Source: a virus (taxonomy: Duplodnaviria; Caudoviricetes). From it: a stretch of 44,180 nucleotides of DNA. The notes under the pieces were generated by a model. It ran no database searches. It had not been told where the DNA came from and saw only the letters and a list, made by a program, of their open reading frames with translations. Location: positions 1 to 44,180 of the IMG/VR virus record IMGVR_UViG_3300025676_000033; one strand, 5' to 3'. Shown here in pieces: positions 2 through 44,115 of this stretch; position 1 is the first letter of the stretch; every line of letters begins with the position of its first letter. Position numbers and translations under genes: made by a program.

Positions 2-874
2 AAGAATAGTGATTTAATATATGATGCTACGTGGTTTTTAGATGGAGTGTTATCTGAGTTTATACAAAGAGCTAAGAACATGAAAGGTTTTGATAATGCT
101 GTTAGATCAGCTGAGAAAGGTAGAGCGCTAGGCCTTGGGGTATTAGGTTGGCATACGTTGCTTCAGCAAAAAGGTATTGCTTTTGAAGGATTACTTGCAT
201 TTTTTAAAACAAGAGAAATATTTTCTCAGTTAAAATTAGAAACTGAAAGGGCTAGTAGAGACTTAGCCGATGTATATGGTGAACCATTATGGTGTGTAGG
301 TACAGGAATGCGAAACACACACTTAAGAGCCGTAGCACCAACAGTATCAAATAGTAAATTATCTGGTAATGTATCACCAGGAATTGAACCCTGGGCTGCT
401 AATGTATTTACAGAGCAATCTGCTAAAGGTACATTTATAAGAAAGAATTTAGAATTAAAAAAATTGTTTAAAAAAATAGGTATAGATAATCAAAAGACTT
501 GGGATAAAGTCTTAAAAGATAAAGGATCTATACAGGGTATAAAAAAATTAGATGGTTACTATTACGATAATACTGGCAAGCTTACTCAGGAAGAAGGCGG
601 CGAGCCGGTTAAAAATGTTTTCAAAACGTTTAAGGAAATAAATCAACTAGAATTAGTTAATCAGGCAGGTATAAGACAAACTTATGTCGATCAATCTGTA
701 AGTTTAAATCTTGCGTTTCCATCACAGGCTGAACCTAGATGGATTAATAAAGTTCATATGGAAGCTTGGAAGCGAGGAATTAAAACTTTATATTATATGA
801 GAACAGAGAGTGTTCTCAGAGGCGATATTGCAGCGGAGGCAATGAATCCAGACTGCTTAAGTTGCGATGGTTAG
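2..874 (+). CDS. nrdA: Ribonucleotide reductase alpha subunit, class I (5'-truncated by window)
   Basis: Frame is open from position 2. Motifs: GRALGLGVLG, AVAPTVSNS, PGIEP, DQSVSLNL, GIKTLYYMR (tyrosine dyad) and C-terminal CLSCDG (CxxC). Confidence 0.95.
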   Translation, partial: KNSDLIYDATWFLDGVLSEFIQRAKNMKGFDNAVRSAEKGRALGLGVLGWHTLLQQKGIAFEGLLAFFKTREIFSQLKLETERASRDLADVYGEPLWCVGTGMRNTHLRAVAPTVSNSKLSGNVSPGIEPWAANVFTEQSAKGTFIRKNLELKKLFKKIGIDNQKTWDKVLKDKGSIQGIKKLDGYYYDNTGKLTQEEGGEPVKNVFKTFKEINQLELVNQAGIRQTYVDQSVSLNLAFPSQAEPRWINKVHMEAWKRGIKTLYYMRTESVLRGDIAAEAMNPDCLSCDG

Positions 875-1061
875 TTTTGTTTTGTTTATAAATATGAAGG
901 GAATCTAAGTTTGGGTTCCCTTTGTATTTTATAGTATTCCAAGGCCAAGTTTTATCTAACTTATTTACAACTGTAGATTTTATAGTGTAACACGAAACAA
1001 ATGTTAAAACAAGTAAAGCTAATAAAAGTCTTTTATATAATGCTATACATTGCTTTTCCAT
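816..1061 (-). CDS. Small lipoprotein (possible spanin/lysis accessory)
   Basis: KR + hydrophobic stretch + lipobox-like FVS|C. Lies directly after the endolysin. Its 3' end overlaps nrdA antisense. Confidence 0.5.
   Translation of the reverse strand: MEKQCIALYKRLLLALLVLTFVSCYTIKSTVVNKLDKTWPWNTIKYKGNPNLDSLHIYKQNKTNHRNLSSLDSLPPLQYRL
897..930 (+). terminator. Rho-independent terminator after nrdA
   Basis: AAGGGAATCTA-AGTT-TGGGTTCCCTT stem, with G-U pairs possible only on the + transcript, followed by TGTATTTT. Confidence 0.7.
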
Positions 1062-1494
1062 TGACTCTTGTGGCTTTTAAACATCTATTTCTATTTTGTT
1101 CTTCAGATACATAACTTATATGTACCCAATCAGGGTTTTTATCTGTACCAAATTCCCAAATCATTTGATCAAAGTTTAAGTTTTCTTTTATATATTCATA
1201 CATCTCAGCGTTAGTCTTGTATCTAAATGTATCATCAATATCCATAGCTCTACCTTCACAATGCTGTGATCTAGAACTTCCACCTATAGCTTTATTCAAA
1301 GCAACAGATCTATAAAAAGAATTAATTTTTATTGGTCCACCAACCCATTCTCTTAATGGTTCAAATATATTATGTGCAACCCCATTCATATTAGTTATCT
1401 CATAAAGCCCTGGTGTATTATCTATATCTAATCTCATCGCTGTATTAGATTTAGTAGCTTCTCTGTATGATATATGTTCACTAATCCTTTCCAT
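1033..1494 (-). CDS. Peptidase M15A-family endolysin (Zn D-Ala-D-Ala peptidase fold)
   Basis: INSFYRSVALNKAIGG, SQHCEGRAMD and WVHISY motifs. The likely start is MERISEH at 1494, just after the giant gene's stop, rather than 1638. Confidence 0.9.
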   Translation of the reverse strand: MERISEHISYREATKSNTAMRLDIDNTPGLYEITNMNGVAHNIFEPLREWVGGPIKINSFYRSVALNKAIGGSSRSQHCEGRAMDIDDTFRYKTNAEMYEYIKENLNFDQMIWEFGTDKNPDWVHISYVSEEQNRNRCLKATRVNGKAMYSII

Positions 1495-1495
1495 A

Positions 1496-4400
1496 TTAAT
1501 TTTTTCTAGGTTTATTCGCTCTTGGTTTATTTTTTTTAGGTTTTTGAACATAATCAGTATCTTTTGCGTCTTCAAACGGAATATTAACCTCCCATTTACT
1601 CCAACCAAGTGACAATGCCATTCTTTGCCACATTTCATTTTCTTTATCTGAAGCGGCTTTTATGTTATTAATTTTCCTTAGAACTCTATCAGCTGGTAAG
1701 TTAATACCAAAAGAAAGTGCATCTGCTGCGGCTAATACAGCAGGATTTTCCGTATCAAGACCCATTTCTTTCATTTTCTTAAGATTTTGTTTATATGTAA
1801 ACCTATCTTTCATATCAAATAATTGTCTTGTCTTCCTACCAATAGGCGGCGACATATTAAATATTTCTTCAATTGCTTTCTCATCAAAACCCTCTCTTTC
1901 AACAATTTTCATTATTGTATTTTTTACAGTAGCTAGTAATGCCCCAAATACACCGGTACCTCTTAATACAGAATCAGCCATACCGTTCATCACTCTTATT
2001 TTTCTGGTTTTTTCTCTTTTCTCTTCTTTGTCATTTTCCGGCTCATCAAATAAAATAGCAAATAAAGCTTGTTGCATGGAGTGGAATATAACATTTTGAA
2101 TAATTAAATAATTAGATATTTTCATAACATTAGTTTTCCAATCACCTCTTCCGTTTTTTAAATCTAAGAATGCTTTTTTTATTTGTCTGTTGTACTGCAT
2201 TGGGGTATTTTGAAAAGCTAATATAAGCCTTCCTCCAAACCCAGCCTGTTCTTGCGATATTTTTTCAGGTCTACCTGATTGTTGTGTGTCTTCTGCAATT
2301 TCACGCATGTCTTCAAAAGCTTGATCAAAAGCGTCTTGGTCAGACAACCCGTCTTTTTTGTATTTAGCCTCTCTGTTACTTAAAAACGAGGATCCTCCAA
2401 AAGCAATAGCAAAACTATCAGCCATTTGTGTAGGCCAAAACCCTCTCTTTAATATTGTAGCTATTACTGCTCTTGTTGGATTTTTAGAATTTGAAGCAGC
2501 AGACGCTATTTCTTGTTCGTTAACATCTGTTCTTAAACCTGCTCTTCTTTGTTTTAAATAATCTGAAAAGAATATTTTATTAAAGTAACCCCAAAATTTT
2601 GGTTGGTTCTTAAATGCTTTTGCCGCAGCTATAGGGTTGTTGTCTCCTAGGTTAATAAAGTTTACCGATGATATTGTTTGAAGTAAAGCTGATCTAGTGT
2701 GAATAAACATCGTATTACCAATAGCATTATTTACCCAATCAAGTATTCCAGTACCTTGCTCATCTAATTGGAAACTCCTATTTCTACCTGTACCAATTCT
2801 ATAAAAAGAACTTTCTAATGCTTCAACAAAACTATTACCATAAATACCTCTTACTTTGTTTACATTTACCCCAGATAATTTACCATGATATTTATCAAAT
2901 TTTCCGAACACCACATTTACATTATCAAAGAATGGCTGGAATATTTCAGCTCTAGTTACCTCATTAGTATGTTCTAATAAATCAGTTGTAAGAGTCCCTG
3001 ATACCCAATCTTCATTTGGTTCTGGATATTTTTTATCATCCCTAAAATACGCTTCCTCAATAGCGTCAGTAAATTCTAATGAATCAAAATTTTGTCTGAC
3101 CCACTTATTTACTTTTTCTTGTTCAGGACCAGGTTTTGTTCTTTTCTTTGTACCTGTGAATTCATCCATACCTGGAACAACATACCCTCTTTTAGTCCAA
3201 AGATGTACTCTAATAGCTTGTTCTACTGTATAACCATCTATAACTTCTGCTGTTAAATCAATTTTTTGTTCACCCATTAAAACTTTCGCTTCTTGTAAAG
3301 TTTTATGTGATTTAATTTGGTGTGCTTCAAATTCTAAATTAGCTCTTGTTAAAGGCCTTGTAAAAGTTTCTTTAATCCATTTTAAATCTGCATTTCCTTG
3401 TTCTTTTTTACCAGCAAACTGATATAATAAACCTAATAAATCTTCAGCTGAATTTCGCATAAAAAGTTGGAACTTATCTGATTTAAAACCTTCTATTTTA
3501 GCTTTTGCTATTGAAATTCTTTCTTTTGCTGGAATACCTTTAGTCCTTTCTATCATTTCATTAAGCTCGGTGCTATTATTTGTTTTACTAAATTTAGTTT
3601 CACTAAAAATAGGTGTAGTTTTTATACCTGCTTTTTTAAGCCTAACTCTACTATCATCACTGGGTTGTAAATCTTTAGGCGTTTCGGTAGTGTCCATCTT
3701 ACTTTTCCATTTTTTATCAATCAAATCAACATAGCTCCTATTTAATACACCTTCCATATTTTTTTCGAGTTTATTTAAATTACCATCTTTTTCATAAACA
3801 TCTAATAAAGCTTCTATTTGTGTTCTTAAATTCTTAATAGTTAAAGTATGTTCATATGTAATACCTGAAATAACTTTATTTTTATTTTTTTTATCACGTT
3901 TAAGTGTGCCGTCTTTATTACGTTTAACTTCTAGATTAGTTTCGATGTCTCTTAATTTACCCGCTAATCTTAATATAGAGTCACTATATTCACCTAGAAT
4001 CATTAATAAATCTTTAGCCCCTTGTATATCTCCTGTAGCGGCTATCCTGCTTACTTCTCTAACGACAGCATTAGCTGAATCTTTAGATTGTTTATCTATA
4101 TCATACCTATTATCATTTAAATTTGATAAAAAATCATCAACAGTCTTATACTTTTTAGCTAAATATTTTCCGTTTATAGTAGAGGGTCTTGTATCAGCTA
4201 AGGGTCTAAATGAAGTTTTTGTACCATCTTTAGCATAATGAACTATACTTGTTTTATTACCCACTTTTTCTACATCAAAACCATTCTCTTTTAGTCCGAG
4301 TGGCTTATTTAAATAATTAAACGCCTGTTCATTACTACTTCCAGTTATCTTTTTTAAATGTTCATTGTTAATATAAGAAGGTAATATGTGTTTAATAAAA

Positions 4401-30137: not shown

Positions 30138-32357
30138 TTATTTTAATATTTTGGATAAATTACCTTTATTATTGTACTTCTTAAATTCAAATTCTAATTT
30201 TTTTGTTGTTCTAGCTATAGCGGGGTTATATAGGTTTTTATTGCATGCCATAATTGCTAAACCTGAGCTAATTGCCGCATCAAACTTTGTTCTTTTATTT
30301 ATATCAAACAAAGCCCAATCATTTAATGTACGATCAAAATAAAGATCTCCATAGTTATTATCTTCTTTTAATCCTACATATCTATCTATATATGATTCAA
30401 TAGCCGCTGCGTGTGCTTGTCTTATATCTTCAGATGAATTAGGTATACCCCCTACTTCCCTTTCCGCTACGGATAATTTATTATATATTTTATCCGGTCT
30501 GTTTATTGAATAACCCCTATACCCTCTTCTTTTTAAATAATATAAAAGCCTAGGTTTATTATTTTCTGCTAATAGTGGCATTCCATAAAATACTAATGCC
30601 ATTAATACATCTTCAAAAAACATTTCCGCTGTTGGTGGTCTTGATACATATTCAAGAAAAAAACTATTAGAAGGGGCTTCATCTAAGCTAAACTTAGTCA
30701 ATCCATGCAATGCTCCTTTAGATCCTTGACCATCTGTCGTTCCGGATATATCGTAACTATCACATCCAAAAGCCCCTAAGTGTTCATTTCCTGGAGTTTT
30801 TCTACCTCTATTATTTATTACAATGTTTTGCATTTGTACCGGTGGAATCCAAGAAATATTAAATCTTCCTTTTAATTCCGGCATAAATATAACCTTGCTA
30901 TCTTTTATACCATTTTCCCATTGGAAATTACCTTTAGACACAAAGCCTGAACTTTTTAAATCGTTATTGTAATCTATTTGCTCGTATATCTTTTGTAAAT
31001 TAAATATACTGTTTTTTGTTTCATCTCTAAAAGCATGTTCCTCTGTTCTTGGAAATTGTCTATAGAGTTCGTTTAATGCGTCTTGATCGCTTTTAAGTCC
31101 ATCAACCTCATTCTGCCAATGCTCTATAACCCCAATATCGATTTTATCGCCTTGAGGTCCTTCGGATGCCTCCCTTGGTGTTTCGAAAACAGGTAATCCA
31201 TAAGAATCAATGAATCCCTCGTAGTTCCATTCCATAGGTATGAACAAACTATATAATCCAGAGCCAGTCTGTCCATTGCGGTTTCTTTTTGTAACGTCTG
31301 AGCCATTATATAATTTTTTAAAGTTATCACCACCTTTGTCTAAAGAGTTTGAGGTGGATCCCATCATACATTTTCCTATAATCCTGCTTCCTAATCTCAA
31401 CGTTGTTTTTGTAACACGCCAATTGTTTAATATATTATCTGGTCTTTCCCATTTACCAGATTCATCGTGAACAAGTAATTTTAACTTTTCACCATCATAT
31501 GAGTTGTCCCCTGTGTTTTTCCAGTCTATCGTTGTATCGAGCCCGTCGAGGTCTTTCCCTTTGGAGGCGTTGGTTGTACTGGTGATGGACTTCCTTGTGA
31601 GTTTGGATGCTGGGACACGGTAGGCAAGCTCTGTCTTGGGACGGTCCATCCCGTCTTGTATTGGCTTAAAGAAGAATGGGTAGTGTAATGAAATTGGGAC
31701 GACCTTGTCGGTAAACATCTTCTTTGCATCGCTACCAGTCTTCGATAAGATTCCGAATCTAGCATCTGAAGTGAGTGTAGCTTGATTAACTGTCTCGCTG
31801 CTTGACATGAAACTAAACCCCGACCGTCTATTCTTAAGGTAGCATATTCCATAGCATCTTGTATCTGCCTTGCATGCCTCCCAGAAAATAAAGAATAATC
31901 TGTTTGCTTCTCGAAAGTCTGGCTTCCCAACATCAATCTTGGACCACTGCAAGTAATTGTAATGAGAGCCAGTAATATAAGTATCAACCCCCTTATTACG
32001 GAACCAATACCCTTCTTCCCTTCTTGTAAATTCTCTATTAATGTATACATGCCATGTTTCTTTAAATTGAGCAGGGTATGTTTCCCAGTCAAATATTGTT
32101 TTTATATTTTTTAATTCTCTAGGATATTCATGAGGTGTCCATTTATTATGTTTGCTATACACTTCTTTTACTTCCGGTAATGCAATCTTTAAATTTTGTA
32201 TTTCATATACTTCACCAATCCTACCAGTCTTGCTTATAACAATCACATCATGTTCTTTGTTATAACCATATTCCCAAGCTTTCTTTTTATTCAACCTATG
32301 TATTGTTGTTCGCTTAATAGGTTCAATAATCTTATATAATGTTTGTTGATAACCCAT
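30138..32357 (-). CDS. terL: Terminase large subunit
   Basis: Walker A-like LKNRRSGFS, Walker B LLVHDESGK, MMGST coupling motif, nuclease FGCDSYD, ENNK and FDAAISSG. Confidence 0.92.
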   Translation of the reverse strand: MGYQQTLYKIIEPIKRTTIHRLNKKKAWEYGYNKEHDVIVISKTGRIGEVYEIQNLKIALPEVKEVYSKHNKWTPHEYPRELKNIKTIFDWETYPAQFKETWHVYINREFTRREEGYWFRNKGVDTYITGSHYNYLQWSKIDVGKPDFREANRLFFIFWEACKADTRCYGICYLKNRRSGFSFMSSSETVNQATLTSDARFGILSKTGSDAKKMFTDKVVPISLHYPFFFKPIQDGMDRPKTELAYRVPASKLTRKSITSTTNASKGKDLDGLDTTIDWKNTGDNSYDGEKLKLLVHDESGKWERPDNILNNWRVTKTTLRLGSRIIGKCMMGSTSNSLDKGGDNFKKLYNGSDVTKRNRNGQTGSGLYSLFIPMEWNYEGFIDSYGLPVFETPREASEGPQGDKIDIGVIEHWQNEVDGLKSDQDALNELYRQFPRTEEHAFRDETKNSIFNLQKIYEQIDYNNDLKSSGFVSKGNFQWENGIKDSKVIFMPELKGRFNISWIPPVQMQNIVINNRGRKTPGNEHLGAFGCDSYDISGTTDGQGSKGALHGLTKFSLDEAPSNSFFLEYVSRPPTAEMFFEDVLMALVFYGMPLLAENNKPRLLYYLKRRGYRGYSINRPDKIYNKLSVAEREVGGIPNSSEDIRQAHAAAIESYIDRYVGLKEDNNYGDLYFDRTLNDWALFDINKRTKFDAAISSGLAIMACNKNLYNPAIARTTKKLEFEFKKYNNKGNLSKILK
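31526..32050 (-). CDS. Candidate overprinted gene in the +1 frame of terL (lipoprotein-like, Pro/Ser/Gln-rich tail)
   Basis: Stop-free for 188 codons from TTG 32092 (ATG at 32050). Local GC is ~52% at 31501-31680. Signal-like segment RGLILILLALITIT|C. Confidence 0.4.
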   Translation of the reverse strand: MYTLIENLQEGKKGIGSVIRGLILILLALITITCSGPRLMLGSQTFEKQTDYSLFSGRHARQIQDAMEYATLRIDGRGLVSCQAARQLIKLHSLQMLDSESYRRLVAMQRRCLPTRSSQFHYTTHSSLSQYKTGWTVPRQSLPTVSQHPNSQGSPSPVQPTPPKGKTSTGSIQR

Positions 32358-32629
32358 TATTTAGATCTTTTTTCAGCAAACCCACTAAATGCTTTTGTTT
32401 CATCTTGTATAGGTTTGTTTTCTAAAATAGCTTGTTCTTGTTCAATTCTATTTAAAATCTCGAGAGCATCGAATATAGCTAACTTTTTTGTAGCAGCTGC
32501 ATTTTTTAATCTATCCGCAGACACATCATCATCAGTTTCTACAATTGGTTCTTTTGCTACTTTTACTAATTCATCAACAGCTTTATAACCAGCTTGGATT
32601 ATACTCTCTTTCTTCTTTTTTATATTCAT
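32357..32629 (-). CDS. Putative terminase small subunit / packaging accessory
   Basis: 90-aa helical protein coupled to terL by a TAATG overlap. Confidence 0.5.
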   Translation of the reverse strand: MNIKKKKESIIQAGYKAVDELVKVAKEPIVETDDDVSADRLKNAAATKKLAIFDALEILNRIEQEQAILENKPIQDETKAFSGFAEKRSK

Positions 32630-33170
32630 ATTTAATTGAAATTTCCTTTGTCATTACCCTGTATAATCTTTCACCGTTTATTATAAATTCGTATTCACTA
32701 TCCGGGGTAAAACCTATCTTCTCACCTATTGTTAATAAACCTGAATCATCGGTGTGCTTAACAATACCCATTAAAGGTTTTTCTTTATTAGTAGAGAACT
32801 TATCCTCGCTCGCTAATGGTTTTATAAAACAGTAGCCTTGATTTGCTTTCCAGATGCCTTCGTGTTTATAAAGGAAGATTTGATCGAGTTCACAAAAATA
32901 TAGATTATCTTTAAAATAACTTTTGCTGTTTTTTTCAATACCTCTAACGTCATGCCAACGGCGAAATATGTTATGATGCACATAAAGCTCAGTGCCTCTA
33001 GTAAAATGCTTGCCATCTATTATTGGTGTTTCATGTATTACAGCTTCACGACTTACAAATTTATGATCAGTTATACCAGAATTTAATATTAATTCTGTAC
33101 CATTGACCTTTTTAATATTGTCGTATCTTTCTTTTTTTGGTGTTATTAAAAAAGTATGTATTGGTTTCAT
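32583..33170 (-). CDS. GroES-like co-chaperonin (tandem GroES-like domains)
   Basis: YCFIKPL...MGIVKH...IGEKIGF...EYEFIINGERLYRV resembles the GroES beta-barrel. A similar pattern occurs in the N-terminal half. Confidence 0.6.
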   Translation of the reverse strand: MKPIHTFLITPKKERYDNIKKVNGTELILNSGITDHKFVSREAVIHETPIIDGKHFTRGTELYVHHNIFRRWHDVRGIEKNSKSYFKDNLYFCELDQIFLYKHEGIWKANQGYCFIKPLASEDKFSTNKEKPLMGIVKHTDDSGLLTIGEKIGFTPDSEYEFIINGERLYRVMTKEISIKYEYKKEEREYNPSWL

Positions 33171-33664: not shown

Positions 33665-36600
33665 TTAACTGTGAACATATGTCCCACTAGATGTAAATTT
33701 TAATATTGTATCGCTTCCTGATGTTGTTACAGTAGGGCTACCTGTTGTTGAACCTGAATATTCAGATGTCAGTAATCTTAATATTACTACTCCTGAACCT
33801 CCTGCTCCTGATGTACCTTGAGCACCACCCCCACCACTACCGGTATTTGCTGTACCAGCTGTAGCAGTTGTTGTACTTCCAGCACCTCCACCACCAGAGC
33901 CTCCAGAACCAGCGGTTCCTCCACCTCCTCCTCCTCCACCTCCGGCGTAGGTTGCAGAACTTCCTGTAATACTTATAGCTAATCCTGCTCCACCTGCTCC
34001 ACCTGCACTTGAACTACTATTTGAACCAGCCGCAGAAGCACCTCCACCTCCACCACCGTTGTAAGTAGATTCTCCTATTCCTTGCCCACCATCAAAACCT
34101 TGATTAGCTGTTCCGCCACCACCAGCTTGACTACCGTGAGCTCCACCTCCTCCTGAACCTCCATCTCTACCAGTCTGATTCCGTCCACCTCCACCACCTC
34201 CAGTTGAAGTGATGGTTGTTAATCCTGTTGCTGCTATAGAAGAGTCTCCTCCATCATTTCCATATCCGTCCAAACTACTGACAGCTGTGCCCCCATCGCC
34301 AACAGTAATTGTATATGTTCCTGCTGCTAAAGTTATATCGCTTTCTGCTACTGCACCACCACCGGATGTAGAACCATAAGAAGTTCTTAAACCACCAGCT
34401 CCACCTCCACCTCCTGAACGATCATCATCTCTACCACCAGAAGCACCACCTGCAATTACAAGCCAGCTCATTATACCAGTTTGGTTTATTTTGAATGCCA
34501 TATATATATAAGTACTTCCTGATACATTTGTATTACCTCCCGCTTGAGCTAATGTAAATCCATCACTATCAAATGATGTTGTGTATGCACTTTCATCTGC
34601 TTCAGCACCAGTTGTATCTGCTCTTAAATTTACACCTACACCTCTTACAGAATCACATATTACCCAACCATTAGAACTACCCCCTGTTGCTCTTTTTATC
34701 ATTAACCAGTCAGGTTGAAATCCAAGTCCCGTTATACTATTCGTTGTCCCTGTTCCAGTATAACTTCCAATCTTACTATATCCTGATACTGAATGGAAAC
34801 AGTAAGATATATAATCACCTCCGCTTACATTTGTACTTTCGCTTGTACCTGTGTTTTGATATATTACTGTAGCTGATGGTCTCACATAATAAGGGTGATT
34901 TGCACTTGATACACTATTTTGTTCTGAACTTGTTAAATTTAAATACAACCAATTAGGGTATGTAGAATGACTTAAACTTAAATCTTTATGATACACACTC
35001 CAGTTGTTAGTAGAATCTAATCTTTTAGAAATTATCATTTCAGGTGCTGCTGAAAGTCCGTGAGGAACTTGTTTACCTGATACACCATCACCTTCATATT
35101 TTACAATAGAGAATCCTGCATTGGCGTTTGCACTAATTATAGTTTCTCCTGGAGCACCGAAAGTTAAATCATCATTGTCAGCCGCAGTTTCCTCATATAA
35201 AGCTGTTACATTTTCTTGTATTAATGCCGCATCATAAAATCTTAATTGGTCAATTTGCCCTGTAAAATCTGGTGTACCTCTATCTGTTCCAAGAGCTTTA
35301 GATGTAAAAGATATTGAATCGTAAGTAGGGAAAGTACCAACATTAACACCATCAACATAAGCTTTAGTATCTGTAGGAGTAAAGTTAAACACAATATGAT
35401 GCCAAGTATTTTCTGTTATAAGACCTGCTGCTGTTGTATTGCTTTTAAAAGTACCAGCGTATTTAGTCAATAATAATAATTTACCATCTCCATACAATAC
35501 TGGTCTAAAATAATTGTTAGCATCTATCCAAGCAGAATATAACGAATAAGCTGTAGCAGATGTACCTGCACCCATATCTGTAGCTTTCAGCCAAAAAGAC
35601 ATAGAAAAAGTTGAACCGTGTAAACTATTGTTAAAATTTATTTCACTGCTATTACTTTCAACAAAAACTGCAGCTTTATTAAACTTTCCAGTTGTATAAG
35701 TTATGTTTGAAGTCGTACCATTGTAATTACCTCTAACATCATTTGCATTGTCCTCAAATTTATATACTGCTCTTGCATTACCACCAAATAGTGTAGGTTC
35801 GTTATCATCAGCTTTCCACGCCCAAGCAACTAAAGCATCACCATTTCCATTATGTGCATTTCCCAAACCTAAAGAAAATCCATCACTATCAAAAGAAGTT
35901 AAACCTGCAGTCCCTGCTCCTGTTTTTGCCGCAGTAGTATCAGTTTCTAAATAATAATTTGGGCCCCATATATTATCAATTATTCTATTTCCTACTACAT
36001 CAGTTCTATTTTTCAGCCAAACCAAATTAGGTTTAAATCCTAAACCTGTAATACTTTGTGTACCACCATTACCAGTATAAGTTTTTACTGCAAAACTATC
36101 TGCAAGTGTTGGTGCTTCTGTGTCAGGGTCTGCAGCAAATGCCATATAGATATAAGGACTTCCCGAAGTATTCCAATCAGCATAATCATCTTTTATTTGA
36201 AATCCATTAGCTAAAAAATCAACACCATTTAAATCAGAAGCTTCAGAATTTAATCCTTGTGCCATTAAATATTTTAATCTTGGATTACTTGGGTCTCTTG
36301 CATTATCTATCATAACCCAAGCACTTGCAGAATCTGTTCTTTTGAACATTAAAAAAGCAGGTTCGAACCCAGTTTCTACAATCGGGCCGTTATCTGAACC
36401 ATTACCTGTGTATGAGCCAAACTTTGAAAACCCATCAATACCTGCGAAAAAATAACCAACATAAGTGTTGCCACTTAAATAACCATTACCCCCTGCTGCA
36501 GTATTAAAATAATATTTTGTAGTATCAGGTGCAGTTCCAAATACATCAGATGAACTTCCTGCAGCACTTTGTTCTAAAGATAAATAGCCATTAAAATCTT

Positions 36601-37139: not shown

Positions 37140-37619
37140 TTAAATATTAGGAAAATCGTATAATACTACTTCTTTTTTTTCTGGTAAAGCATTTATTTCT
37201 GTTTCAACAGTTGCTGATTGTGTTCTTAAACTTGTTCTTGCTGTTTGCACATCACTTGGAATTGCATCGTTGTTATCTGTTTTTCTAATAACATACCAAT
37301 CCGTTTCAGCTAATTTAGAATTGACTATTGATTTAAAATGGTTTATTCTTCTTGTTTTTAATTCACCTAAAGTTTCAGTCCATGTTTTATCAACTAAATC
37401 TTTTCTAAATACAGTGTTTGGTGAATCAAAATATATTTCGCCCAGTGTATGAACTCTTTCATCATAGTCATCACTTATTACAACATCAAACATTCCTGCA
37501 TTCTTTAACTTTTCTGCTGACATTTTGGTTGCATTCATATGCACACCTGTAGAAGAGTGAAAAGAATCTGGCACTGAAGCGTATACTTTTATTTTTCCGT
37601 TATTATTTACTGCTTTCAT
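37140..37619 (-). CDS. Tail fibre assembly chaperone-like protein
   Basis: LAETDWYVIRK...RTSLR motif resembles tail-fibre chaperones; lies between fibre genes. Confidence 0.65.
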   Translation of the reverse strand: MKAVNNNGKIKVYASVPDSFHSSTGVHMNATKMSAEKLKNAGMFDVVISDDYDERVHTLGEIYFDSPNTVFRKDLVDKTWTETLGELKTRRINHFKSIVNSKLAETDWYVIRKTDNNDAIPSDVQTARTSLRTQSATVETEINALPEKKEVVLYDFPNI

Positions 37620-37629
37620 ATATTATTTA

Positions 37630-38925
37630 TTATGGTGTTGTATCTGACGCTATAGGCGCAACTGAATAGTAGAATATTTCACTTGAAGCATCATCTGCAA
37701 CAACAATCTGTATTAAATTAGTTGTAGAGCCGTCGTAATTAACTGTTCCTATTTTATTAAATGTAGCGCCTGACATTGCAAGTGTTAACGCGTAGTTACC
37801 CGCAACTATAAGATCGACTACCTGCCCTTGTTTAGGGTTTGTTATTGTAAAGGTAGCATCCCCATTCATGGTCGCTGTAAAAGTTGTAGCAGTTGCAAAA
37901 TCTAATGTTTGATTTGTTCCTGTACCTTTAGCAACTAATGTTGTATATCTTGGTTCTAATTTAGCGTGCGTAACATTATCATCAACTATAGAAGCGGTTA
38001 CTACTGCATTCGCTGCTAACTCATCTGCTCCCACTGCGTCATCAGCTAAATGCGCATTATCAATTGAGCCGTCTGTATAATGCTCTGAATCAATTGCATT
38101 ATCAGCAATTTTAGCTCCTGTAATCGCGTCTGCAGCTATATATGTAGAGGCAATTGCCGTTCCTTGCCAAACACCAGTACTGATTGTACCAACGCCTGTT
38201 ATATTTGTTTGTGATGCTGTACTTAACGTTCCAACAAAAGCGGTTGATGTAATCGATGTAGCGCCTGTTATAACACCAGCATCTACACTAATTGTACCAT
38301 CTAATAATATTACTGAACCTGCTGCTGGTTCTAAGTTAATAGCTCCTCCGGAATCTAACGTTATTGTTGAACCAATTGCCTCAAAAGTTCCATCTGCTGT
38401 AATTGTAATATTAGCAGCTGCGGCTGCGGCATCTGTTGTTGTTATATCTAATGTACCATTTGTACCAGCTGTTAATGTTGCTGTATCACTTGCAGAACCA
38501 GTCATTGTTATGACTTTACCATTTATAGCAACATCATCTACTGTTAAAGCAGTTAATGTCCCAAGTGATGTAATATTAGTTTGTGCTGCCGCTAATGTTG
38601 CTGCTCCACCTGCCGCTAAAGTAACATCACCGCTTATATTACCAAATATTGCATCTTCTAAATTAGAAGCTGTCATTGATTTAAGATTACCTGAATCTGA
38701 TGTATCTGATAGTATTACAAGATCGTCTTGTGCAAAGTCAGTTATAGCCGCTGCAAGTGAATCACCATCAAGCTTATCCATATCTATAGCTGCTCCAGAT
38801 GCTATTGATGCATTAACTACTGCGTTTGCCGCTAACTCATCTGCACCTACCGCGTCGTCTGCAAGCTTTGCTTGTGTTATTGAATTATCCGCTAATACGT
38901 TAGCTGTTACTTTTGTTGTTGCCAT
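37630..38925 (-). CDS. Tail fibre protein (shaft repeats)
   Basis: 10-aa (I/L)A.DA(V/I)T.AK repeats, SEHYTDGSID and GVWQGTAIA; C-terminal domain paralogous to that of 40270..43653. Confidence 0.75.
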   Translation of the reverse strand: MATTKVTANVLADNSITQAKLADDAVGADELAANAVVNASIASGAAIDMDKLDGDSLAAAITDFAQDDLVILSDTSDSGNLKSMTASNLEDAIFGNISGDVTLAAGGAATLAAAQTNITSLGTLTALTVDDVAINGKVITMTGSASDTATLTAGTNGTLDITTTDAAAAAANITITADGTFEAIGSTITLDSGGAINLEPAAGSVILLDGTISVDAGVITGATSITSTAFVGTLSTASQTNITGVGTISTGVWQGTAIASTYIAADAITGAKIADNAIDSEHYTDGSIDNAHLADDAVGADELAANAVVTASIVDDNVTHAKLEPRYTTLVAKGTGTNQTLDFATATTFTATMNGDATFTITNPKQGQVVDLIVAGNYALTLAMSGATFNKIGTVNYDGSTTNLIQIVVADDASSEIFYYSVAPIASDTTP

Positions 38926-38936
38926 TTATTAATTAT

Positions 38937-39311
38937 TTATACTGTTAATTCAACTACTTTCCATTCTTGGTTTTCTTCATTCCAAGCATATATTTTATCT
39001 TCTGATGCATCTTCAGGATATGGTATTGGTGCTTCCCACTTATAATCTTCATCTAATAACCAACTTGCAAATGGTTGTGGTGCATAAAAAGCATCGTTTT
39101 CACTATCCCAAGTATAACCTACTCCTGCAAAATTATATCTAATGTTTCCATTATAAGATGTTTGAACCCAATTTCTGTGACCATATAGTCCTTCACAAAA
39201 ATCTATACCTTTTGATTCAGATTCTTGATCACCATCTAATAATTCATTATTATGTATTACAATTACTTTTGTTACTATATTATTTTCATTTATTTCTGCG
39301 AAATGTGCCAT
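38937..39311 (-). CDS. Small fibre-associated protein (MAHFAE... type)
   Basis: MAHFAEI, WVQTSYNGNIRYNFAGVGYTWD and WEAPIPYP. This type commonly follows Gly-rich tail genes. Confidence 0.7.
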   Translation of the reverse strand: MAHFAEINENNIVTKVIVIHNNELLDGDQESESKGIDFCEGLYGHRNWVQTSYNGNIRYNFAGVGYTWDSENDAFYAPQPFASWLLDEDYKWEAPIPYPEDASEDKIYAWNEENQEWKVVELTV

Positions 39312-39331
39312 ATTAATTATTTTTTTAGTTA

Positions 39332-40270
39332 TTACGCATGTACGTATGTACCACTACCTGTAAATTTTAATATCGTATCACTACCTGATGTTGTCACCGT
39401 AGGGCTTCCAGTTGTTGTTCCTGTATATAAATCTGTCGGCATTCTTAATATAACAACACCAGAGCCCCCTGATCCTGCGGTTCCAGCACTTGTTCCACCA
39501 CCACCACCACCGCCAGCTGCTCCTGTGTTAGCTGTACCTGATGAAGCGTTACCTCCAGCAGCACCACCTGTTGATCCTGATGTCATATTTGATGTTCCTC
39601 CAGCACCCCCTGTTGTAGCACCACCCCCACCACCACCAGCGTAGGTAACAGAAGAACCAGTTATTGTATTTGTAATAGCATTACCTCCAGCACCTCCATT
39701 TGCATTTGAAATATTTGCACCTATTCCTCCAGCACCACCACCACCAGCACTTGACCTCGCTGTAGCAGAACTTCCAGTATTACCTGAAGCATAACCTTGA
39801 CCAGTTGTACCTGCACTAAATACATTGCCACCAGCTGAATCTGTTGCATAAGCACCACCAGAACCATAAGTCCCATTTCCACCATTTCCGGGACCACCTA
39901 ATCTTGAACCTGCTCTACCTCCTTTTAAAGATGTGATGGTAGTAATATTTGTTCCTGCTAAAGATGTATCATTCCCATCATTACCTGTTGCGTAAAATCC
40001 AGTATTTGTTGGAGCTGTTGCACCTGCCCCTATTGTAACAGTAATTGTGCCTTCAAAATTTGTGATATCAGTTTCTGCACCTGCACCACCTCCTGAATTA
40101 CTGTATGACGACCTAAACCCACCTGCACCACCTCCTGCTCCACCAATACCTCCGTGACCGTCAGCATAACCACCTGATCCTGATCCTCCTCCTGCAATTA
40201 CTAGCCAGTCCATTGTTACTGGCGATACACCTGCTGCTAATGCTCCGAAATTTATACCTTGTCCAAACAT
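39332..40270 (-). CDS. Glycine-rich tail fibre tip protein
   Basis: Likely start MFGQGINF at 40270 (TAATG overlap with the upstream stop). WLVIAGGG...GGSGVVILR domain. Confidence 0.8.
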   Translation of the reverse strand: MFGQGINFGALAAGVSPVTMDWLVIAGGGSGSGGYADGHGGIGGAGGGAGGFRSSYSNSGGGAGAETDITNFEGTITVTIGAGATAPTNTGFYATGNDGNDTSLAGTNITTITSLKGGRAGSRLGGPGNGGNGTYGSGGAYATDSAGGNVFSAGTTGQGYASGNTGSSATARSSAGGGGAGGIGANISNANGGAGGNAITNTITGSSVTYAGGGGGGATTGGAGGTSNMTSGSTGGAAGGNASSGTANTGAAGGGGGGGTSAGTAGSGGSGVVILRMPTDLYTGTTTGSPTVTTSGSDTILKFTGSGTYVHA

Positions 40271-43656: not shown

Positions 43657-44115
43657 TTATTTGTTTTGTATTGTTTTAAATTTTTCTGCACCACGTGAGC
43701 CAAAGTAGGCTACATAAACAGTGATAAGTAATGATTTTAATAAATCAACCCATCCCCCATCAACTTCAAAGTCTAATCCGGTGGAGTCTATAAATATTAA
43801 TAAGACCATTGAAATAGTTAAGAAAACTAATGTTAATGGCCTTGTGTTTTTCGAAAGCCAGGAATCAGATCTCATATCCGCTTGCCATCTTTTTGATACT
43901 TCTTGCATTTCTACAGTATCTTGATGTAGCAGGGCTAATGCTTTTTCCTTGTCTTCAGCTGGTAGTGTGGGATCTTTCTTAATTAAATTTTTAACTAAGC
44001 CAAGTACACCTTTATCTGGCAAAACTTCACCGAGACTACCGATTATATTAGATCCAGCACCTGCTAAAAATTTACCAACCGCTGTGTCTTTTAATTTCTT
44101 TTTATTTTTTGACAT
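43657..44115 (-). CDS. Holin, 3TM (GTA-holin-like) family
   Basis: RWQADMRSDSWLSKNTRPL followed by TM helices and YFGSRGAEK. Confidence 0.8.
   Translation of the reverse strand: MSKNKKKLKDTAVGKFLAGAGSNIIGSLGEVLPDKGVLGLVKNLIKKDPTLPAEDKEKALALLHQDTVEMQEVSKRWQADMRSDSWLSKNTRPLTLVFLTISMVLLIFIDSTGLDFEVDGGWVDLLKSLLITVYVAYFGSRGAEKFKTIQNK

Follow-up and report, generated by a model that had tools for sequence, protein, structure and literature searches.

A selected +1 reading frame with a lipoprotein-like leader inside the large terminase gene of a marine phage clade

Hidden and accessory lipoprotein genes of phages

Small viruses and the Rz/Rz1 pair provide the best-documented cases of overprinting, which is shown here by population-scale selection tests inside terL, one of the most conserved genes of tailed phages. 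The window is the whole stretch of DNA analysed, a linear phage record of 44,180 bases that is 73% complete and carries its structural genes on the minus strand. Two frames hidden in its terL, both in +1 relative to it, are here called ORF1 and ORF2 (Table 1). According to the available text of PMC6139136, Rz1 of lambda and 18.7 of T7 are lipoprotein genes embedded in +1 within the late genes Rz and 18.5, which is also the layout of ORF1. The host gene of Rz1 encodes its partner i-spanin, whereas that of ORF1 encodes the terminase, and unlike Rz1, ORF1 has a mature part of 141 aa with free sequence and Thr in position -1, and about one relative in four has lost it. The likeness to nested o-spanins put forward in the preliminary description of this DNA therefore holds as an analogy only, the more so as a separate, canonical lipoprotein is encoded at 816-1061. 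ORF1 is not embedded in, overlapping or beside an i-spanin gene as an o-spanin gene would be, and has no C-terminal transmembrane segment as a u-spanin would.

In T7, two short ORFs, genes 19.2 and 19.3 (DUF5477 and DUF5466), lie wholly inside terL and both in the +1 frame, as here; the T7 RefSeq coordinates are 37370-39130 for gene 19, 38016-38273 for 19.2 and 38553-38726 for 19.3. Their products of 85 and 57 aa both lack a leader comparable to that of ORF1, and hhalign comparison of ORF1 and ORF2 with them revealed no homology (probabilities of 0.3 and 0.1). Since the terL families are distant, the T7 genes are considered to be of independent origin. Both are annotated as hypothetical, with a lysis role suggested in the accessible part of PMC8365609, and the PhageMaP preprint does not mention them. 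If the wider proposition considered below, that this clade twice built genes inside terL, is true, the +1 frames of terL would, together with 19.2 and 19.3, constitute a recurrent nursery for late genes.

The Llp protein of T5, a small lipoprotein made early, sits on the inner leaflet of the outer membrane (available text of 10.64898/2026.03.26.714494). Like Llp, the ORF1 product is predicted to be an accessory, periplasm-facing phage lipoprotein, and the two are without sequence similarity. Unlike ORF1, Llp is presumably encoded by a free-standing gene. Unusual codon usage, weak purifying selection, predicted disorder and a distribution limited to one clade mark viral genes born de novo by overprinting (PMC3494269, in its available part). 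ORF1 shares the general traits of overprinted genes, the host frame here being the conserved ATPase of the tailed-phage packaging motor. ORF1 had no family match in Pfam or PHROGs, no sequence likeness to any family and no usable match in the ESM Atlas, and searches of open-access papers gave none on these terL +1 frames.

The cultured flavobacterial phages of Pachyviridae, Pervagoviridae and Elemovirus have the same terL family and the same GroES-terL-portal gene order, whereas their TerL is only 30-46% identical and neither overprinted frame is present. Because the nearest cultured relatives, likewise with 30-46% TerL identity, infect Flavobacterium, Cellulophaga, Tenacibaculum and Maribacter, we infer a host among the Bacteroidota. 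The available text of PMC8776804 names spanins only in other families of flavobacterial phages. Annotation of lysis genes in flavobacterial phages is poor, perhaps in part because some of their envelope proteins are hidden.

Table 1. Positions of terL, its internal frames and the lysis-related genes in the window
Feature	Position	Strand	Remarks
terL, terminase large subunit, 739 aa	30138..32357	-	phrog_6681, E 4e-159; ancestral host gene
ORF1, +1 frame of terL, 174 aa	31526..32050	-	ATG 32050 as likely start; stop-free from 32101 on
ORF1 leader, 33 aa, basic n-region and hydrophobic region	31952..32050	-	predicted type II signal peptide
ORF1 Cys, predicted lipidation site, Thr at -1, Ser-Gly at +2/+3	31949..31951	-	selected
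About 23 moderately constrained residues after Cys	31880..31948	-	no acidic surface-export signal
ORF1 tail	31526..31879	-	length kept, sequence free, S/T/P-shifted; source of GC patch
ORF2, +1 frame of terL, 60 aa, small, without signal peptide	31124..31306	-	likely second overprinted gene
Holin	43657..44115	-	phrog_3427, E 4e-19
Endolysin, peptidase M15	1033..1638	-	at one end of the record
Lipoprotein-like gene, 81 aa, canonical lipobox	816..1061	-	overlaps endolysin 3' end; better-placed spanin candidate

The terL gene and stop codons in its +1 frame

IMG/VR contains about 15,000 stretches that match the terL family. A Pfam search with the terL product gave no match and a PDB sequence search with TerL nothing useful; what we take to be the Walker A and Walker B motifs lie at about codons 172-181 and 294-302. 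The gene is flanked by the portal gene, which comes next after it, and by a 90-aa gene directly upstream (32357-32629, minus strand), which from its position only may be the small terminase subunit. A GroES-like gene (32583-33170, minus strand, phrog_13932) is also found upstream. TerL is a standard phylogenetic marker, and the overlap biases its codon signal and possibly its amino-acid signal. GTDB bins with terL relatives are often Flavobacteriales, yet many are of unrelated taxa. Bins assigned to many unrelated bacteria and archaea contain members of the family (L507-L573), suggesting that mis-binning of phage contigs into MAGs is frequent.

An ORF of 188 aa running from a TTG (31526-32092, minus strand) in the +1 frame of terL is present as first described. 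Its stop-free run of 191 codons covers terL codons 85-275, the second-longest off-frame run on the same strand in 20 large genes of the record being 85 codons, and resampling of synonymous codons gave 10.2 expected stops over the run and a probability of 1.8e-8 for none. The high GC content reported earlier for 31501-31680 was recovered (0.517), but the background is 0.339 for the whole record, 34% and not the roughly 30% that was given. The codon shift in terL was likewise recovered, with GC3 of 0.51 inside the overlap and 0.19 outside. This GC step is a visible marker by which more such hidden genes may be found.

Conservation of the frame was assessed mainly in the record and 80 IMG/VR relatives whose TerL is 71-87% identical to that of the record. 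The +1 frame is without stops over terL codons 110-250 in 58 of the 81, mostly with raised GC3, while 23 are broken by 1-10 stops each and mostly have GC3 at background. The pooled ratio of observed to expected stops over these codons was 0.18-0.25 in the +1 frame and 0.79-1.38 in the +2, -1 and -2 frames. Frame -3 also dips (0.33 at codons 110-139 and 0.44 at 251-290), which is attributed to shared Leu codons. Among 75 dereplicated sequences, six near-duplicates having been dropped, xTA within the ORF1 overlap was found at 93/699 sites before a purine, where a stop results, and at 450/765 sites before a pyrimidine; outside the overlap the corresponding counts were 1417/2234 (0.63) and 856/1314 (0.65). 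A-ending codons are lost only where a stop would arise, and there is therefore no general GC shift.

The two halves of the frame go together, since of 56 sequences with an open 5' half 52 also had an open 3' half, against 3 of the 19 others. When 120 loci were fetched for each of two 21-nt variants around the Cys and short and duplicate loci were dropped, the downstream frame was open in 54/69 loci of the Cys type and in 1/70 of the AT-rich variant. In a GTDB set independent of the main set, with 47 of 67 loci usable, ORF1 was open in 23/32 loci at TerL identities of at least 68% and in 0/15 at 66% or below, and the frame is missing from all six annotated phage records (0/6). Because the distant relatives are without the frame, birth by overprinting within one clade is favoured. 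At least 11 switches between open and broken were counted on a tree of the TerL C-terminus; the phylogenetically independent pairs, about 4:0 with a median p of 0.125, were too few for significance. The pattern points to a single origin by overprinting with later repeated loss or recombination. A profile of ORF1 gave 138 matches, of which the eight inspected comprised six terL-frame products and two unrelated repeats, with no free-standing homologue among them; the remainder had no genomic context. Hundreds of natural alleles, in which each of the hidden genes is variously retained, shortened or lost, make gene birth and the recoding of the host gene directly studiable. Four relatives (L007, L046, L057 and L021) have stops at terL codon 189, 223 or 243 and none in 107-185; the first three retain leader and Cys, and all four are possible intermediates of loss.

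The preliminary description had named +1 stops in close homologues, together with unsuppressed synonymous variation, as counting against a gene. Stops do occur, in the 23 broken sequences, and synonymous variation is suppressed over the leader only and is free over the tail, being 0.324 over terL codons 160-250 against 0.229 in the control. This freedom, the reality of the GC3 step and the fact that some terL residues force Cys, Gly or Trp in the +1 frame are all in line with a frame that is a by-product of a GC-rich recombined segment, of RNA structure or of the hydrophobic bias of +1 frames. Such an origin is nonetheless very improbable and largely refuted by the restriction of xTA loss to stop-making sites, by T at fourfold sites of 0.74 in the leader and 0.29 in the tail of the same ORF, and by the compensation among start codons given below. 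RNA structure did not explain the GC patch, as its fold z-score of -0.41 is nothing unusual, and a recently shared recombined segment is unlikely because third positions are only 46% identical among open frames, which is near saturation. The homologue tests thus strongly support the overprinted gene with a lipoprotein-like leader that was proposed, and ORF1 is almost certainly a real gene. Its translation is predicted, and it is the compensating start codons that point to it; marine RNA runs contain only small shares of the stretch, as contigs, and show neither expression nor frame.

Start, leader and tail of ORF1

The originally proposed start, TTG 32092, is not conserved, as stops at terL codon 95, 97 or 105 are found in many relatives. 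The likely start is ATG 32050, at terL codon 102. In a set of 185 sequences dereplicated from 320 partly motif-chosen loci, comprising 87 open frames, ATG stood at codon 102 in 47 of the 60 open frames lacking the codon-105 stop and in 1 of the 27 that have it, and 23 of these 27 have ATG at 106-114; for broken frames the same three figures, in order, were 8/41, 14/50 and 24/50. ATG 32050 is preceded by G at -3, a base that 26 ordinary genes of the record all lack there (0/26), and expression of ORF1 is for this reason probably low. The weak start context would also suit programmed frameshifting from TerL into +1, giving a membrane-tethered TerL fragment, as would the TerL/+1 chimeras among database proteins (P0009, P0021, P0024 and P0084). 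Frameshifting is very unlikely, however, as the chimeras change frame at varied sites and both ways, which is what sequencing indels would produce, and the placement of ATG tracks the codon-105 stop.

The basic residues, the hydrophobic stretch and the Cys at its end were all confirmed as described and make up the architecture of a lipoprotein. Residues were counted in an unbiased set of 52 open and 17 broken frames. Leu at terL codons 125, 128 and 130, which overlies Thr/Ser codons of terL, was found in 50, 51 and 51 of the open frames and in 11, 4 and 8 of the broken ones, and the mean hydropathy of the leader was 2.70 and 1.55, respectively. The NN/NS ratio of the leader was 0.10 (interval 0-0.33), the intervals of other regions being too wide to use. 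The Cys was present in 50/52 open and 3/17 broken frames, Thr at -1 in 50/52 and 4/17, and Ser at +2 in 45/52 and 4/17. Among 53 database matches with a readable motif the Cys is residue 34 in 17 and residue 30 in 14.

The record reads T-I-T-C and does not match the lipobox consensus [LVI][ASTVI][GAS]C; deviations from it are documented, Thr at -1 not being among those described in the available text of PMC6139136. The invariant Tyr of terL permits only Thr or Ile at -1 of ORF1. An uncleaved anchor or a lipoprotein retained in the inner membrane, acting like an antiholin in lysis timing with the Cys used for a disulfide, would accommodate the non-consensus Thr and the long leader of 29-33 residues, and the phage has a holin. 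It is improbable, given that selection keeps the Cys precisely where the hydrophobic stretch ends, with Ser/Asn-Gly coming next, as is typical of lipoproteins, and that no link between ORF1 and any holin type was seen in 34 contigs. Judged by these sequence features, ORF1 probably encodes a lipoprotein. Positions +2 to +7 after the Cys are without D or E in open and in broken frames alike, so that the surface-lipoprotein signal of Bacteroidetes is missing. As surface export of Bacteroidetes lipoproteins needs acidic residues after the Cys (PMC5080379, available part), the ORF1 lipoprotein would face the periplasm.

The last 60 residues of ORF1 are 60% P/S/Q/T, in agreement with the Pro/Ser/Gln-rich end noted before. 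Frames with intact leader reached at least 110 residues past the Cys in 102 of 110 cases, in a partly motif-biased set with 230 usable of 467 loci. Selection keeps the start codon, the hydrophobic stretch, Thr-Cys-Ser-Gly and a tail of at least about 110-115 residues, and leaves the sequence of the tail free. Tail composition moves from I/L/V/F/M to S/T/P, and it is this shift that produces the GC patch. The basic character of the tail is not selected, since its net charge is 7.5 in open and 7.3 in broken frames. No second membrane segment was found over codons 137-250 of the 87 open frames, where the maximum 19-residue hydropathy was 1.22, nor over the whole mature part of ORF1 in the record, with a maximum of 0.63. 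The tail is predicted to be mostly unfolded, the AlphaFold model of ORF1 being of low confidence (mean pLDDT 48).

Further GC-rich patches, with a maximum of 0.54, occur at 33665-34500 and 39300-40200 within Gly-rich tail-fibre-like genes and probably reflect amino-acid composition.

ORF2, other envelope genes and a possible role

The second ORF reported in the same frame (31124-31333) is present, with its likely start moved to ATG 31306. In the record alone the case is weak (P 0.008), about 1.3 stops being expected per sequence. Across relatives ORF2 is bimodal, with stop-making xTA at 28/201 against 246/426. In a typing set of 158 sequences dereplicated from 400 loci, a single codon separated types of which 104/112 and 31/46 were open, and by a ten-site score 96/96 high scorers and 27/49 low scorers were open. 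Over ORF2 the TerL residues vary (Ser/Arg, Arg/Ala, Phe/Tyr, Ser/Ala/Thr and TCT/AGT serine) with substitutions at the wobble positions of the +1 frame, whose residues stay the same or similar. Silent-site transitions were 0.172 against 0.293, the typing motif lying within this span. A hairpin in the ORF2 region of the record (z -1.12) is not conserved, and ORF2-type sequences (n=47, mean z 0.24) share one consensus fold with the others (n=23, mean z -0.01). The frame and residues of ORF2 thus look to be kept by protein-level selection and not by RNA structure, and ORF2 is likely a real gene, although the case is weaker than that for ORF1. ORF1 and ORF2 are associated yet separable, 65 sequences having both, 14 ORF1 only, 26 ORF2 only and 35 neither, and ORF2 is missing in 14 distant relatives of the GTDB set. 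No match to ORF2 was found in Pfam or PHROGs, by tblastn against GenBank phages, or by Foldseek at E<=0.001 with an AlphaFold model of low confidence (pLDDT 62).

The reading we tentatively prefer, as a possibility and no stronger, is that ORF1 encodes a selected, overprinted, lipid-anchored and periplasm-facing protein with a long flexible tail, a non-essential helper in envelope breakage at lysis. Born by overprinting within one clade of marine phages, ORF1 would be translated from the late terL message at its weak internal start, and the product would be exported, lipidated at Cys34 and sorted to the inner face of the outer membrane. There the protein may help to break the host envelope at lysis and, in the most speculative step, its tail may act as a length-dependent tether in the periplasm. 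ORF2, likewise in +1 and farther downstream, would be another small gene, separable from ORF1. A role as an accessory lysis or envelope lipoprotein is itself a best guess, somewhat more tentative still; in its favour are the place of ORF1 in a late gene, a layout like that of Rz1 and selection for tail length. The lack of an adjacent i-spanin and of a C-terminal membrane segment, the frequent loss and the other lipoprotein gene by the endolysin speak against it, as does a membrane-plus-coil family, described below, that could supply an i-spanin yet comes with an exported partner of its own.

Alternatively, the ORF1 lipoprotein might act in exclusion by blocking a receptor or entry step from the periplasm, thereby preventing superinfection or loss of progeny on debris. 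The patchy, repeatedly lost distribution, the predicted periplasmic orientation shared with Llp and the short constrained stretch after the Cys, which could be a binding element, are all compatible with this. Llp is however made shortly after infection, whereas ORF1 lies within a late packaging gene; exclusion also leaves unexplained a selected tail of at least 110 residues with free sequence and gains no support from likeness to any family, and is considered unlikely. The wider proposition that this abundant marine clade twice built terL-internal genes, one for a lipid-anchored tether, dependent on length and not on sequence, that disrupts the flavobacterial envelope without being a classical spanin, and one for a small cytoplasmic protein from the same message that could tune packaging or lysis, is a long shot.

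The holin and M15 endolysin genes lie at opposite ends of the record. The 81-aa lipoprotein gene starts inside the 3' end of the endolysin gene and overlaps a gene on the opposite strand (47-874); its product had no family match and no tblastn match in GenBank phages. Genes that might replace ORF1 were sought in 34 contigs (17 intact and 17 broken, 58-100% complete) with a simple ORF caller and our own lipobox rule, the ORF1-intact status of one contig (G028) being taken from the source search. The 81-aa gene was found in seven of the 34, the record and six other ORF1-intact contigs, all near the subclade of the record. No gene family tracked the loss of ORF1, the enriched families following clade and completeness. 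Mutual exclusion of ORF1 and a free-standing lipoprotein was considered and rejected, as such a lipoprotein is carried by 5/10 intact contigs (at least 73% complete) and 5/8 broken ones (at least 75% complete).

A gene of about 96 aa encoding a membrane segment plus coiled coil is conserved in one contig (G004, L418:517-807) and 17 others. It is usually directly followed by a gene for an exported protein of 104-147 aa with a cleavable-type signal, and has this partner of its own in both ORF1-intact and ORF1-broken genomes. The pair resembles an envelope module of two genes, neither of them encoding a lipoprotein; the first could be an i-spanin gene and in this phage probably lies beyond the end of the record. 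An exported family of 346-408 aa without Pfam or PHROG match (L406:9430-10656 in G001; also in G002, G008-G011, G022 and G023) comes with a lipobox in three genomes, while in the other five its signal peptide is of the ordinary type. G001, an in-clade case of ORF1 loss with ORF2 kept, also encodes a singleton lipoprotein of 145 aa with a Tyr/Trp/Pro-rich low-complexity tail (L406:11104-11541).
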